Counted from the first letter of the stretch, positions 6,816 through 32,609 are shown. The stretch is DNA of 64,000 nucleotides from an uncultured delta proteobacterium (GCA_963841435.1 CAWJCS010000005.1:1600001-1664000), one strand, 5' to 3'. A program made the numbers and translations. Notes: generated by a model from the sequence alone, not told the origin.

Positions 6816-6917
6816 AACGACCGAAAGAGGAGGCCTCGCGGCCGGTCGCGACGCCCGTTGGCTCCGGCCGCTTGTGCTTCCGTGCGCCGCCTGCTACGAG
6901 AGCGCCGTTCGCGCTAC

Positions 6918-7000
6918 GGGTCCGCCAACAGCGCAGCTTGAACTCCGCCAGGCCCGGAAGGGAGCAACGGTAGAGAAAAGCGGGTGTGGCGGGCCCACCA
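6918..7000 (+). ncRNA. ffs: Signal recognition particle 4.5S RNA
   Basis: Domain IV motif CCAGGCCCGGAAGGGAGCAAC with GGAA tetraloop; closing stem GGGTCCGCC/GGCGGGCCC; intergenic location. Confidence 0.92.
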
Positions 7001-7050
7001 ATTTCGCGTGACCGTGCGGCGTCTCGTCGCTGCCTTCGCGGAACACGGCA

Positions 7051-27791: not shown

Positions 27792-27848
27792 TTTTCCGCG
27801 CCATCTGCCCGCTGCCCGGAGCGGCCGGGTGGTACTAGGATGCGGGGC

Positions 27849-28391
27849 ATGACGCGCTCCCCCGTGCTCGGACTCTCGACCCTCGTCCTGTTCGTCGTCG
27901 GCTGCGGCGGCTCCCAGCCCGAGCCTGAGGCACCTGCCGCGCCGCCCGAGGCTGCCGCTGCCGCCTCCCCAACCGCCGGCGATGCGGCGAAACCTCCCTC
28001 CGAAGGCGGCTGGGAGGGCGAGGCCGAGGCGACGGCGCCAGGCGACGCGCCCCGCGCGAGCGCTGCTGAGCCGCCCGCGGCCCCGGGTGTGAAAGAAACG
28101 CGCACGATGGAGGTCATCGCCAAGATCGTGAAGGACCGCCGCCAGCCCGTGCGCGACTGCTACGACAAGGCGCGCAAGGATCTGCCGTCCCTCCAGGGCG
28201 ACATGGTGATCCACTTCGACCTCACACCCGAAGGCAAGGTGAAGAACATCGAGCTCAACCAGCCGCGCTCGACGCTCAAGGCCGCGGCGGTCGTCGATTG
28301 CGCCATCAAGGTCATCCAGGGGCTCGACTTTCCACCCTCGTCTCGCGGCATGGAGACGCAGGTGAACTACCCGTACAATTTCACGCCGTGA
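27849..28391 (+). CDS. Lipoprotein with AgmX/PglI (TonB-C-like) C-terminal domain
   Basis: Lipobox VVGC; Pro/Ala linker; VRDCY...LQG...F...G...DC...FP...YPYNF pattern. Confidence 0.82.
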   Translation: MTRSPVLGLSTLVLFVVGCGGSQPEPEAPAAPPEAAAAASPTAGDAAKPPSEGGWEGEAEATAPGDAPRASAAEPPAAPGVKETRTMEVIAKIVKDRRQPVRDCYDKARKDLPSLQGDMVIHFDLTPEGKVKNIELNQPRSTLKAAAVVDCAIKVIQGLDFPPSSRGMETQVNYPYNFTP

Positions 28392-30011
28392 CGACGGGGC
28401 GCCACACCCTGCGCCCGGAGCCAAGGCACCGGTCCCAGCCCTCGCCGGGCGGTGTGGACGACGCGTACGCCGGCCTGCTCAGCGGCACGCGGCGGCTGCA
28501 CCTCGAGCAGCGCTTCGAGCGCGAGGCGTGGCTCGCGGCGCTCACGCTCGAGGACAAGGACGATCTCTTGTTCGAGCTCGAGGTGCTGCTCAAGGCAACG
28601 GCCTGCTACTCGAACCCGCGCAACCACCCCGGCCCGCCCCGCCGCACCGCCATCGTGGGGCACGATTTCCGGCCCGCGCTGCAGGTCTTTCGCGACGGGC
28701 TCGAGCGGGCGATCGCCCTCGCCCGGCAGCTGCTCGGTCCGCTCGATCGCGCCTTCGTCTTCCATCGCTACCTCGAGACCGTGTTGCCCGAGGACAGCGC
28801 GCGCGCCCGGCTGCTCGTCGAAGGCGCGCACCAGAACGTCGCCCGCGAACAGCCTGATCACGCTGCGCCACGGCCTCACGGCGGCGAACGAGGTGGTCGA
28901 CGGCGTGCTGCGCGTCCAGCGCGTGCCGTTCCGGCTCTTTCACGCGCTGCTCTCCACGGTCTACCGCGAGGTCGATCGCAGCGCGTTCTTCAATCCCCTG
29001 AACGCGCTCGAGTTTCGCCCCGAGTTCGACCGCATCAAGTCGGCCCAGGTGCTGGATCTGATCCGCAGCATGCCGGGCGTCGAGGCGCACCGCCTCGTCG
29101 CGCTCACGTTCTTGTCGCTCTTTCGCATGCTGCGCTACCTCTCGCTGCTCGAGCACATCGGGGCCGAGGGTGCGCAGCGCCGACAGCACGTCGGTAGCGC
29201 ATACCTGGTGCTCAGCGTGCTTCGCTCCGACGCGCGTGCGCTCAGCGACCACCTGCGGCAGCGCGCCGCGGCGCTGCTCGCCGACGGCTTCGAGCGCGAC
29301 CTCATGCTCGTCCCCGCGAGCTCCGTGCGCGAGCGAGCGTCGACGCTGCGCGCGGCGGGACACCACCTCATCGGCATCAAGAGCGCGCTCGAAGGCATCT
29401 CCGGGAGTCTCCGCCTCGAGCTCCGCCGGGCGTTCCAGCACGATCTCCCCGAGCCGGGCGTCAAGAATGCGCCCGCTTTCCGGCGCTCGTTGGTCGGCAC
29501 CATCGAGAACCTGCGCCCCGCGCTGCAGAACTCGATTCTTTTCCTCGGCAAGGCGCTCGGCGTGAGCCTCGAGCACGGTGGCGTCTTCGACGACCAAGCC
29601 GCGCGCCGGCAGACGAGCGAGCGACTGCGCCGCGACGTGTGGATGTTCGCCCAGATCGTCCGAGCGTTTTTTTCCAAAGCGCAGCACTCGCCGACCGAGG
29701 ACGGCTGGGCGCCGGTGCAGGGCTTCCAGTACGTGCGGGAGTTCCTCGCGTACTTTCGCGCCATGGGCTATCCGCTCCTGCGCTCGGCGGACTACCCACG
29801 CATCGACCTCTTCATGGCCGCCATGACGCGGCTCGAGGACACCGACCTCGTCGACCCAGCTCGGCTCGAGGACGCCATCGACGAATGCGTCGCCTTCCAC
29901 GGCTTTCTCACGCGCCTGTTCGACGACATCTCGAAGCGCGACGAGCTTTCGGGCGTCGCCTTCGATCGCCGCGCCGCAGCCGGCGCGCTCAAGCTCTATC
30001 TCGGCGACTGA
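28388..30011 (+). CDS. Large alpha-helical hypothetical protein (apparent +1 frameshift at ~28835)
   Basis: GTGA-coupled to the upstream gene. The protein-like frame runs to GAHQ and continues as TSPANSLITLRHG in the next frame; removing one A gives 541 codons. Confidence 0.75.
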
Positions 30012-30402
30012 GCGCTGCAACCGCGGGCGCTGCCGTCGGCGGGCTCGAGTCCGGGGGCGCGACCGAGCAATCCAACGTCGATGCACCGCGGAAGGATGCT
30101 TGCGCATCCGTCACTTCGCCGCGGGCGCCGCTTCTCTCATCGCTCGATGGGGAGCGATGGCAACGGACGCCCCTCGGGGTTTCATGCCGAGCACGCGGGA
30201 TGGGTACTCATTCGCACCCACCCGCGTGCTCGGCTCCGAGGCTGGGCCCTTGCCCGGGACCTCGTTGGCCCGGGGCGGTGATCGACTAGGTCGACCACTG
30301 CCCCTGTCGGCGCTCGCAATTGGCCTAGCGAGCTTCGCCTTGGCGAGGCTCGCCAGATTGGGAAGCCAGCGAACTCAAAGCACGAGCGCGCCAGGCTTCC
30401 CC
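30012..30402 (-). ncRNA. Candidate large structured RNA or 3' UTR of unknown family
   Basis: At least six hairpins tile the region, including a 14-bp perfect stem (30186-30199/30221-30234) and a GCAA GNRA-capped stem on the minus strand; no credible ORF. Confidence 0.55.
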
Positions 30403-30407
30403 ATCAC

Positions 30408-30524
30408 TCACTTGGCCTTCTTGCGGCGCTTCGCCCGACGCTTGCCCTTCTTCTTGGCAACCTTGGGGGCCTTCTTTGCAGCAGCCTTACGTGCAGTCTT
30501 TGAACGGGTCTTCTTTGCAGCCAT
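30408..30524 (-). CDS. 38-aa Lys/Arg/Ala-rich histone-H1/protamine-like small basic protein
   Basis: MAAKKTRSKTARKAAAKKAPKVAKKKGKRRAKRRKKAK; GGAGG 9 nt upstream; GCT/GCA/CGT/GTT codons unusual for this window and typical of highly expressed genes; too short for the ORF track. Confidence 0.85.
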   Translation of the reverse strand: MAAKKTRSKTARKAAAKKAPKVAKKKGKRRAKRRKKAK

Positions 30525-30587
30525 TTCTCGATGCCTCCCTTTGTTGGGGCCGGCTCTTAACCGAAACCCCTAGGGTATGTTGCAAGA

Positions 30588-30628
30588 CGTATATTGCCAC
30601 GTATGGGTGTCTGTCAACGAAAAAAATT
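30588..30628 (-). promoter_or_regulatory. Sigma70-type promoter for the small basic protein
   Basis: TTGACA (30617-30612), 18-nt spacer, TATACG (30593-30588); upstream T-tract resembling an UP element. Confidence 0.6.
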
Positions 30629-30853
30629 CAGCGGTCGTATGGACGGCGCCTAAGCAGGCCGCATGAACCATGCAACAATTGCGTGGTGCGCACCCGTTTA
30701 GTTCCGGTCACCCGGCCGCGCGAGTTTTCTGGCTGCCCTGTACGAGGAGAGAAAAAGCTCGCTTGCTCGGGCACTTGACGCGTCACGTCGGATTGTCTCT
30801 AAGGGGCTCGAGGCAATCAAAGCCTCCACGAAAAAACTGAGGACTTGCCCCCC

Positions 30854-31669
30854 ATGCTCGACGCTCGCTCACTTCGTTGGATCTGCACCTTGCTCGCGTT
30901 GACGCTCAGCGCGTGCGGCTACTCCCAGGAAGAATGGGACCAGAAGGTGCGTGAGAACGCCGGCCTGCGTGACCAGCTCACGACCCAGCGCCAGGCACAC
31001 AAGAAGTGCGAGGCGGACTACGCCACCGCGCTCTCGCAAATCGACGAGCTCAAGCGCCAGCTCACCGAGCGCGGCGTCAACCTCGAGAACATGAGCGCGA
31101 GCCTCGCCGAGCAGAAGAAGGCGCTCGACGAGTACGCGCGCCGCACCGCTCAGCTCGACGCCATCCGCAAGCGCTTCGAGCTGCTGCAGCAGAAGCTCCA
31201 GAAGCTCACGCAGCTCGGTCTCCAGGTCGAGGTCCGCAACAACCGCATGCTGATCCGCCTTCCGGGCGACGTGCTCTTCGACTCCGGTTCCGACCGGTTG
31301 AAGAAGGAAGGCGAGAGCATCCTGCTGCAGGTTGCCGAGGTGGTCCGCACCGACGCCGACCTCTCGAAGCGCAACTTTCAGGTCGCGGGCCACACGGACG
31401 CCAAGCCGCTCAGTGGCGGTGGGTTCCGCGACAACTGGGGCCTTTCGGCCATGCGCGCGCGCTCCGTGCTCGTGCTGCTCACGACGCCCGTCGACAAGAA
31501 GGGCGGCGGGCTCGACCCCAAGAACTGGAGCGCCGCCGGCTACGCCGACACCGACCCCGTGGCGACCAACGACACGGACGACGGCCGCCAGAAGAATCGC
31601 CGGGTCGAGCTCGTCGTTCAGCCGAACGTCGAGGAAATGCTCAACCTGAAGAGCCTCGCAACGAAGTGA
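30854..31669 (+). CDS. OmpA/MotB-domain coiled-coil lipoprotein
   Basis: Lipobox LSAC; coiled coil; VLFDSGS, GHTD, NWGLSAMRA and NRRVE motifs. Confidence 0.92.
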   Translation: MLDARSLRWICTLLALTLSACGYSQEEWDQKVRENAGLRDQLTTQRQAHKKCEADYATALSQIDELKRQLTERGVNLENMSASLAEQKKALDEYARRTAQLDAIRKRFELLQQKLQKLTQLGLQVEVRNNRMLIRLPGDVLFDSGSDRLKKEGESILLQVAEVVRTDADLSKRNFQVAGHTDAKPLSGGGFRDNWGLSAMRARSVLVLLTTPVDKKGGGLDPKNWSAAGYADTDPVATNDTDDGRQKNRRVELVVQPNVEEMLNLKSLATK

Positions 31670-31676
31670 GCGGCTC

Positions 31677-32609
31677 GTGAGCGGCCACGCCGCCTCGCGG
31701 ATTGCCACGCTCGACATCGGAACCAATACAGTCCTCCTGCTCGTCGCCGAGCGCGGGCCCTCTGGGCTCGCGCCGGTGCTCGAGCGGGCGACCATCACAC
31801 GCCTCGGGGAAGGCGTGGACCGGTCGCGCGAGCTCGCGCCCGCGGCGCGGGAGCGGACGCTGCGCTGCCTGCGCGAGTACGCGGTCGAGCTCGAGCGCTT
31901 GGGCGTCGGGCGCGTCGCCGCCGTGGGCACGAGCGCGCTGCGCGACGCGCGGGGTGGTGACGAGTTCTGCGAACAGGTCCGCGCCGTGCTCGGCGTGGCG
32001 CCCACCGTGATCGCGGGGCGGCGCGAGGCCGAGCTCACGTTCCACGGCGCGCTCTCCGGGCTCGCCGTGACCGGCGACGTGGTCGTGTTCGATGTGGGCG
32101 GTGGCAGCACGGAGATCGTCCGAGGCCCCGCGGGCGGCGCCGTGGCGAGCGCAGTGAGCCTCGACGTGGGGAGCGTGCGGCTCTTCGAGCGCCACCTCGG
32201 AAACGACCCAGCGACGCCCGAAGAGCTCGAGCTCGTGCGTGCCGACGTGGCACGCGCGCTCGTCGACATCGACGTGCCGGGCGACCGCGCGACGCTGGTC
32301 GGTGTGGCGGGCACCGTGACGTCGCTCGCGGCGATCGCTCTCGAGCTCTCCGACTACGATCCCGCGCGCGTGCACGGTCACGTTCTCGAAGCGAGCGATG
32401 TGCACGCGCTCGCCGAGCGGCTCGCGCGCATGACGCTCGCGGAGCGTCACGCGCTACCTGGCCTCGATCCGCGGCGCGCCGACGTGATCGTCGCCGGCGC
32501 GCTGATTGTCGAAGGCGTGCTCGACGCTATTCGCAGCGAACGGCTCGTCGTCTCCGACCGTGGCGTGCGCTGGGGTCTTGCCGAAGAGCTCGCCAAAAGC
32601 AGCCCCTGA
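31677..32609 (+). CDS. ppx: Ppx/GppA family phosphatase
   Basis: DIGTNT, TRLGEG, TSALRDA, DVGGGSTE and GVRWG motifs. Confidence 0.92.
   Translation: MSGHAASRIATLDIGTNTVLLLVAERGPSGLAPVLERATITRLGEGVDRSRELAPAARERTLRCLREYAVELERLGVGRVAAVGTSALRDARGGDEFCEQVRAVLGVAPTVIAGRREAELTFHGALSGLAVTGDVVVFDVGGGSTEIVRGPAGGAVASAVSLDVGSVRLFERHLGNDPATPEELELVRADVARALVDIDVPGDRATLVGVAGTVTSLAAIALELSDYDPARVHGHVLEASDVHALAERLARMTLAERHALPGLDPRRADVIVAGALIVEGVLDAIRSERLVVSDRGVRWGLAEELAKSSP

Follow-up and report, generated by a model that had tools for sequence, protein, structure and literature searches.

A probable structured 3'UTR with a conserved hairpin behind a small lysine-rich gene of an uncultured delta proteobacterium

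The region behind a small ORF on the minus strand of the window (the whole stretch of 64,000 nucleotides that was analysed) is most likely the structured 3'UTR of a small Lys-rich mRNA, with a conserved hairpin, designated P4, that is absent from Rfam. The original prediction had described this region as an independent ncRNA on the minus strand. A strongly structured RNA element on this strand was confirmed by the folding z-scores and the asymmetry of the G-U pairs, but its independence was not: only 9 nt lie between the stop codon of the ORF and the first stem, no promoter site was found there, and RNA contigs of relatives run from the ORF into the tail. The features of the locus are, in the direction of the minus strand:

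30574..30625, minus: promoter-like block with a T-rich stretch upstream, TTGACA at 30612-30617 and a TATACG-like second hexamer at 30588-30593
30525..30573, minus: 5'UTR with a hairpin at 30546-30570 and the strong ribosome-binding site GGGAGG at 30534-30539
30408..30524, minus: small unannotated ORF of 38 aa, coding 30411-30524, stop codon 30408-30410
30360..30401, minus: hairpin H1, the first of the 3'UTR, starting 9 nt past the stop codon
30325..30356, minus: hairpin H2, with one pair that is G-U on the minus strand only
30317..30325, minus: linker GGCCAAUUG, containing the palindrome CAAUUG
30272..30304, minus: hairpin H3, seen in the fold
30237..30264, minus: helix P3, abutting P4, CGAGGU (30264 to 30259) with GCCUCG (30242 to 30237) and an inner GGGC/GCCC hairpin
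30186..30234, minus: long conserved hairpin P4, basal arms CCGAGCACGCGG/CCGCGUGCUCGG
30170..30185, minus: tail of the window past P4, GCAUGAAAC then CCCCGAGGGG
30057..30169, strand open: distal hairpins, 30138-30159 and 30094-30109, the latter inside 30086-30124

Structure and conservation of the tail

The stretch 30012-30410 lies between a convergent gene for a 519-aa protein on the plus strand (28452-30011, stop codon 30009-30011) and the small ORF on the minus strand. For its minus strand an MFE of -237.7 kcal/mol was calculated, compared to -186.3 +/- 6.1 kcal/mol for 100 dinucleotide shuffles (z -8.42), and for its plus strand a z of -6.29 resulted, likewise against dinucleotide shuffles. 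When 1596 stretches of 240 nt from both strands of the window were folded and the folding energies corrected for GC, the six most negative values were all located at 30001-30480, and the strongest structure outlier of the 64-kb window was 30161-30400 on the minus strand with -5.36 SD. The predicted folding beyond shuffled sequence holds true for 30172-30410 on the minus strand, with a z of -9.59 and 0 of 200 shuffles as good, but not for the distal part at 30012-30171, which showed a z of -1.96 on the minus strand (9 of 200 shuffles as good) and of -0.61 on the plus strand (50 of 200).

All stems that had been listed were found at their positions by reading the sequence, and the inverted repeats I1, I3, I4, I9 and I10 in 30012-30410 match them. 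The claim that the hairpin 30325-30356 comprises one G-U pair on the minus strand only was also correct. As had been stated, the tail is no repeat array: it comprises only two direct repeats, each in two copies, of 13 nt and 10 nt, and is single-copy in the genome. A dispersed repeat of the REP or MITE type was considered and rejected, with a blastn search of 30012-30410 against the 7.78-Mb genome returning the region itself and fragments of 15-53 nt.

The distal stems, CATCGCTC/GAGCGATG, GGATGC/GCATCC and the CCGCGG pair, all lie within 30012-30171, where the hairpins occupy the space between P4 and the stop codon of the 519-aa gene. They are real inverted repeats, not clearly beyond chance for the GC content, and blastn found them conserved in 0 of 24 same-genus genomes. 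The segment 30057-30171 is probably outside any conserved element.

The central element of the tail is P4, which shows 14 perfect basal pairs in the window and then extends inward. A P4 alignment was built from 31 sequences of seven genera (19 of the genus type and 12 from six other genera) over a helix of 20 pairs. In this alignment, 85.6% of the cells were paired, compared to 33-49% when the 3' partner was slid by 1-3 columns. Double changes occurred at 15 of the 20 pairs, and none of 500 shuffles attained any of the observed measures; since related genomes are not independent, these shuffle statistics overstate the support, while the slid controls are clear. The cells comprised 45 G-U compared to 17 A-C combinations, and 27 compared to 4 in the 16 basal pairs. 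This excess of G-U over A-C indicates that the selected structure is an RNA on the strand of the ORF. A P4 covariance model scored 53.9 bits on the minus strand of the window and 35.5 bits on the plus strand.

The two halves of P4 differ in their mode of evolution. The identity amounts to 0.90 (0.87 between genera) in the basal 10 bp and to 0.49 in the upper stem, compared to 0.73 (0.68 between genera) at the synonymous third codon positions of the corresponding genes. Since the identity of the lower stem exceeds that of synonymous positions, the sequence itself is constrained there, and not the pairing alone. The upper stem evolves by compensation, whereas the lower stem is held in sequence.

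P4 is closely connected to the small gene. The pattern of its arms occurs once in its own genome, where only one other distinct locus reached E < 0.001 with the covariance model, by chance and within a coding sequence. As a side observation, a control pattern with the P4 arms backwards gave one match per strand of this genome, compared to about 0.05 estimated by chance. Among 150 family genomes, the nine best non-self covariance-model matches (E <= 2.3e-10) are all located downstream of the small ORF and on its strand. This result, together with the single copy in the genome, ties P4 to the small gene. The weaker matches in the family, with E above 1e-8, comprise 14 loci for which the pattern found no ORF; six of these were inspected and four look like coding sequence. 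The remaining two of the six are L220 and L216 (locus numbers of relatives begin with L). In L220, a variant Lys-rich ORF lies at a distance of about 540 nt from the weak P4 match. In L216 (about 1501-1567, minus), an intergenic P4-like hairpin of a 16-Mb family genome (E 1.6e-8) shows the same lower stem with a UUCG-type loop and no Lys-rich ORF within 1.5 kb.

A scan of genome contigs with the P4-arm pattern returned at least 120 loci, and among the matches listed the ORF was present only in L041. Of 12 myxobacterial matches inspected, L041 is the homologue, and 11 look intra-coding as judged from their flanks without a check of the frame. The corresponding scan of metagenomes gave 19 loci, of which 10 carry the ORF, one is a truncated homologue and eight are unrelated; none of the 19 is closer to the window than L010 and L011.

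The prediction that the pairings are conserved in homologues was borne out by covariation for P4, for the abutting P3 and for the base of the hairpin 30325-30356, but not for the hairpins at 30057-30171. A helix was found 0-5 nt before P4 in 29 of 29 sequences examined (in three of them with an overlap of 1 nt with the first base of P4). The arms of P3 covary within the genus, with CCAAGG/CCUUGG and CCGACG/CGUCGG in relatives and CGAGG/CCUCG in the window; a further variant, CCGAGC/GCUCGG, was read by eye. The proposed enclosing helix 30172-77/30236-41 is present in the window, but it competes with the pairing of 30259-30264 with 30237-30242, which is kept in relatives by compensatory changes. 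Since both helices use the same CCUCGG, the comparative data favour 30259-30264/30237-30242. The suggested long-range pair 30072-77/30263-68 was not retained, as it would use the 5' arm of P3 and a distal segment that is not conserved.

The hairpins further upstream were compared with those of the closest clade (the six sequences L010, L011, L182, L185, L193 and L194). The base of H2, CUGGCGA/UCGCUAG in the window, corresponds to CCGGCGA/UCGCUGG there, i.e. to one compensatory change from U-A to C-G, and this counterpart is the first hairpin of the clade's tails. H1 is lineage-specific in sequence and absent from the clade. H3 is lineage-specific as well, and the clade holds a different hairpin at the same position. 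Relatives nevertheless often carry a hairpin right behind the stop codon, their first hairpin overlapping or abutting this codon. The linker GGCCAAUUG is common to the closest clade and L017, and a related linker, GGCCAAUCGG, occurs in L013, L186, L188 and L192.

The tail linkers measure 0-5 nt, and the conserved stretches upstream of the terminal hairpin are mostly helix arms. The segments from stop codon to P4 of 39 homologous tails from several genera, including 10 metagenome contigs, were compared with 30 shuffles each. All 39 were more structured than their shuffles, with z from -2.2 to -8.5 and a median of -4.5. Altogether, the upstream hairpins show a fast turnover of sequence while their structuredness is retained.

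With 30012-30560 as blastn query against 40 related genomes, 24 of them of the same genus, 19 of the 24 same-genus genomes were matched, and only in the ORF and the 5' region (query positions from 396 on). No direct sequence homology to the hairpin region was found by blastn in the 40 genomes; outside the ORF region there were seven short GC-rich matches of 27-52 nt at query positions 2-138, on unrelated contigs of five genomes. Behind the small ORF, every relative with enough sequence nonetheless showed a tail rich in hairpins, with a length between about 100 and more than 300 nt, and whole hairpins were gained and lost among these tails. Nearly all of them end in a long hairpin with the lower stem of P4. 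In the family, the P4 type was found in 12 of 24 loci with the ORF, which together with the genus set comprises seven genera; the other 12 loci showed different hairpins, often followed by a U-tract, or a contig edge.

Two observations concern individual tails. The lengths of ORF and tail are apparently inverse: the 3' ends are short behind orthologues of 113-125 aa (L234, L235 and L241, with genome sizes of about 12-13 Mb), and behind ORFs of 38-72 aa (window, L151-L178) the tails measure between 100 and more than 300 nt. The tail of the same-genus locus L173 contains long G runs, at a place where the near-identical metagenome contig L197 is ordinary; these runs are probably an artefact of assembly or read quality.

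With Rfam 15, no family reached its gathering threshold in the tail, and the only match in the whole window was a bacterial small SRP RNA at 6915-7002 on the plus strand, with 51.4 bits (gathering score 40). When 29900-30700 was scanned permissively, nine matches resulted, the best of them to a miRNA model with 26.2 of 91 bits, and 17 homologous loci gave no Rfam match.

The small gene and its neighbourhood

The 38-aa product of the ORF consists of Lys and Arg to nearly half of its residues, with the N-terminus MAAKKTRSK and the C-terminus RRKKAK. Of 20 genus loci examined, 19 have an intact ORF, and a GGAGG-type site lies 6-9 nt 5' of the ATG in 19 of 19 genus loci. With the promoter block and the ORF start as query, matches were obtained in 80 of 200 family genomes, corresponding to 33 of 89 genera, and 24 of 28 family loci fetched in this way contained the ORF in intact form. 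An alignment of 15 protein sequences showed 19 invariant columns.

The promoter-like block is the best-conserved part of the locus, with 81-92% identity in many genera (blastn, query positions 1-52). Its TTGACA hexamer is a perfect match, and the putative transcription start of the small gene would be at about 30580. The sequence suggests a promoter role of 30574-30625 for the small gene, although a strict sigma-70 consensus scan of 29900-30750 returned no site, the promoter-like block included. It was further noticed that the roughly 50 nt of the block (T-run, TTGACA, GGTGGCAATATACGTC) are more conserved across genera than the ORF behind them (L150-L179, L236-L241). Promoters do not usually reach an identity of 81-92%, which hints at an extra bound factor.

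No Pfam or NCBIfam match was found for the 38-aa protein, and a PDB profile search with it gave no matches. A pattern search based on the protein alignment returned 289 matches, none of which was confirmed by tblastn, probably because the small protein is of low complexity; a homologue search with a 62-aa orthologue as query gave one match. In genera with large genomes, the same promoter block precedes orthologues of 95-125 aa, which start with MAAKKT and contain Lys/Ala repeats. These longer orthologues scored 23.2 bits against the histone H1-like family PF07382 (HC2), far under the curated cut-off of 40, and 28.9 bits against the histone H1-like family NF038053 (hist_H1_lk_Burk), far under the cut-off of 80. 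What these families and the products of the small gene have in common is a Lys/Ala-rich, basic composition of low complexity. Since the likeness is compositional, the small protein was not assigned as a member. Reports of 'histone H1-like' proteins from myxobacteria appear to concern CarD-type proteins and not the small Lys-rich gene. The small protein is conserved in soil myxobacteria.

The convergent 519-aa protein belongs to no Pfam or NCBIfam family. The LYLGD-type C-terminal end of its gene faces the small gene in the window as well as in L014-L016, L026, L027, L155, L163, L168, L171, L174, L178, L239 and L240; the gene is absent at L010-L013 and L018. The occurrence in many loci of several genera indicates that the pairing of both genes is conserved. 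Since the tail is kept with or without the convergent gene downstream, it appears tied to the small gene's own transcript.

Upstream of the promoter of the small gene, an OmpA-family protein with a coiled N-terminal part (30845-31669, plus) and a Ppx/GppA phosphatase (31677-32609, plus) are encoded, and a TonB_C-like ORF lies at 27840-28391. Several ORFs of 41-216 aa were noted in the region. Those of 45-216 aa at 30081-30281, 30100-30573 and 29639-30289 on the plus strand and at 30182-30319 on the minus strand overlap the tail or are antisense to the small gene; the 5' part of 29639-30289 overlaps the 519-aa gene. With 29639-30289 excepted, these ORFs are probably spurious, since the tail region has no blastn match in relatives.

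Transcription and termination

Metatranscriptome contigs from four runs, mapped to the window at 80% likeness, cover the ORF (30402-30543) and originate from relatives. In three studies the contigs continue for 64-255 nt past the stop codon with a sequence unlike the window, and the letters past the stop form the first-hairpin types of the genus relatives, in which the loop is UUCG or UCGG. In one contig with a length of 422 nt, the ORF is preceded by 48 nt and followed by about 200 nt. The window's own tail was covered in none of the four runs. Hence ORF and tail are present on one RNA contig in relatives, while starts, ends and levels are beyond the reach of these contigs. For the organism of the window, we infer co-transcription of ORF and tail from their position.

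Transcripts of relatives of the small gene appear in soil metatranscriptome contigs. Shares of 0.05-0.06 in public runs were considered as an indication of the habitat, and this reading was rejected, as the shares represent conserved parts of relatives and are no habitat evidence. Two short RNA pieces of X24 at 30267-30347, with lengths of 36-38 nt and 6-7 mismatches, are likewise not expression evidence.

The statement that the stems form no terminator cluster holds for the window, where a terminator scan of 29900-30750 found no hairpin-plus-U terminators, but not for its relatives. The GC-rich stem-loop of an intrinsic terminator is present in the form of P4, and no U-rich tract lies within a few nt of it in the window, in which P4 is followed by GCAUGAAAC. 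In L151, L152, L157, L165, L168, L020, L022, L027 and L237, a U-tract directly follows P4. Some of these loci belong to other genera (e.g. L151, L152, L157, L165 and L237), and P4 looks like a terminator there. All six sequences of the closest clade contain a separate GC hairpin with a U-tract 30-60 nt past P4. At the matching place in the window, a shortened hairpin, CCCCGAGGGG, is followed by CGUCCGUUGCC, and the tail at 30170-30179 is U-poor. As judged by eye, 30170-30185 probably represents what is left, after decay, of the hairpin-plus-U terminator found in the closest clade.

Interpretation of the structured tail

With moderate confidence, we favour a cis-acting 3'UTR that shields the mRNA from 3' exonucleases and contributes to ending transcription, P4 being its key element. 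The mRNA, monocistronic and about 400 nt long, would start from the promoter-like block near 30580-30617 and encode the 38-aa lysine-rich, histone-H1-like basic protein (30411-30524). The minus strand of 30172-30408 would then form a long, almost fully base-paired 3'UTR, in which GC-rich hairpins follow one another as a chain with linkers of a few nt and P4 comes last. These hairpins, P4 above all, may block 3'-to-5' exonucleases and may help to stop RNA polymerase, so that a strong promoter would yield a stable and insulated transcript. A protein, e.g. a double-strand-specific RNase or the encoded polycation, could possibly recognise the sequence-conserved lower stem of P4.

Two observations qualify this role. 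Since P4 is absent in 12 of 24 loci with the ORF, and the longer orthologues have short, simple 3' ends, the long tail is not essential to the gene. Moreover, the identity of the P4 lower stem (0.90, compared to 0.73 for synonymous positions) goes beyond what pure exonuclease blocking or termination needs. This conservation and the retention of P4 before a separate terminator keep a recognition role open.

Such 3' stabilisers and retroregulators are known from the 3' positive retroregulator of Bacillus thuringiensis cry, the REP stem-loops after malE, and lambda sib with RNase III. Like these systems, the tail comprises GC-rich hairpins past the stop codon and a long near-perfect duplex near the 3' end, the placement on the same transcript being deduced here. 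It differs from them in that four to six different hairpins extend over about 230 nt behind an ORF of 117 nt, and from the REP family in that it is single-copy and not dispersed. Like an intrinsic terminator, P4 is a long hairpin, rich in GC, that lies where a transcription unit ends, and U-less 'I-shaped' hairpins have been proposed as intrinsic terminators for GC-rich bacteria. Unlike intrinsic terminators, P4 of the window is followed by GCAUGAAAC, and its lower-stem sequence is conserved across genera, which is unusual for terminators.

A tentative alternative, to which we assign a rather low probability, is that the tail is a functional RNA domain, i.e. a processed stable RNA derived from the 3'UTR, an RNA partner, or an autoregulatory site at the lower stem of P4. 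As part of the same reading, and just as tentatively, the binder would be the encoded polycation or an RNase III that retroregulates the upstream ORF. This is consistent with the high identity of the basal 10 bp of P4 (0.90, or 0.87 between genera) compared to synonymous positions (0.73, or 0.68) and the upper stem (0.49), and with the structuredness kept in all 39 homologous tails. P4 is furthermore a near-perfect duplex of about 20 bp, a size class that RNase III cuts. The separate terminator behind P4 in all six sequences of the closest clade points in the same direction, since P4 would then be kept in the clade of the window for something other than termination. The tail however contains almost no conserved single-stranded sequence that could serve as a seed, as its hairpins abut and its linkers are short. 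The P4 type is also missing in 12 of 24 family loci with the ORF. Pairing of the tail with the SD sequence, as in icaR, was tested with RNAduplex and 100 shuffles each and was not found (median z 0.15, with 1 of 29 below -2).

Small RNAs derived from 3'UTRs are known from enterobacteria and others (PMC12746102, PMC11399405). The tail resembles them in its terminal hairpin at the 3' end of the mRNA, which is better conserved than the rest of the tail, and differs from them in that no conserved single-stranded seed is evident; in the corresponding seed test, the terminal hairpin was conserved and the linker GGCCAAUUG was conserved in part of the genus only. Literature listings and abstracts contained no report of 3'UTR-derived sRNAs for myxobacteria, nor one of the small protein or the tail RNA.

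A more far-reaching idea, which we regard as improbable, is that the protein works as a functional pair with the folded tail of its own mRNA, in which the lower stem of P4 would be recognised by the polycation or RNase III and would set the mRNA level or nucleate an RNA-protein particle or condensate. If true, a single short transcript of myxobacteria would carry a self-contained module of the type 'protein plus cognate RNA'.

It also seems unlikely that only P4 or the hairpin following it is functional, namely as terminator, and that the remaining hairpins (H1, H3 and 30057-30171) arose neutrally in a GC-rich intergenic region, for instance as insertions or decayed palindromes, and are under no selection. 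The missing counterparts of H1 and H3 in the closest clade, the distal part lying within chance, the variation of the tail length between about 100 and more than 300 nt together with the gain and loss of whole hairpins, and the genera with a short terminator alone would all agree with such a limited role. It does not account for the segments upstream of P4, which beat their shuffles in 39 of 39 homologues from several genera, for the segment of the window being the most extreme of 1596, or for the compensatory changes in P3 and the base of H2.

An independent ncRNA gene with its own promoter on the minus strand, as originally proposed, is very improbable: strong structure, the G-U evidence for the minus strand and the missing Rfam match would fit it equally well, but H1 starts 9 nt past the stop codon, which leaves no room for a promoter of its own, the consensus scan found no promoter-like sites, the first hairpin of relatives overlaps or abuts the stop codon, their RNA contigs are unbroken from the ORF into the tail, and the best family matches of P4 (9 of 9) lie downstream of the small ORF.

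Altogether, the tail belongs to a kind already known, i.e. stabilising or terminating hairpins at the 3' end, and is marked by its unusually long and plastic structure, the conserved motif and the unannotated gene. Long, conserved and highly structured 3'UTRs have rarely been documented in bacteria and hardly in myxobacteria. The locus adds an unannotated gene for a small basic protein as well as a hairpin motif outside Rfam that is supported by covariation. For annotators, the structured region is neither empty nor protein-coding, and a gene caller might annotate spurious ORFs there. The lineages with long, short or replaced tails provide a natural series for the effect of 3' structure on the fate of an mRNA in GC-rich bacteria, in which terminators often lack clear U-tracts.
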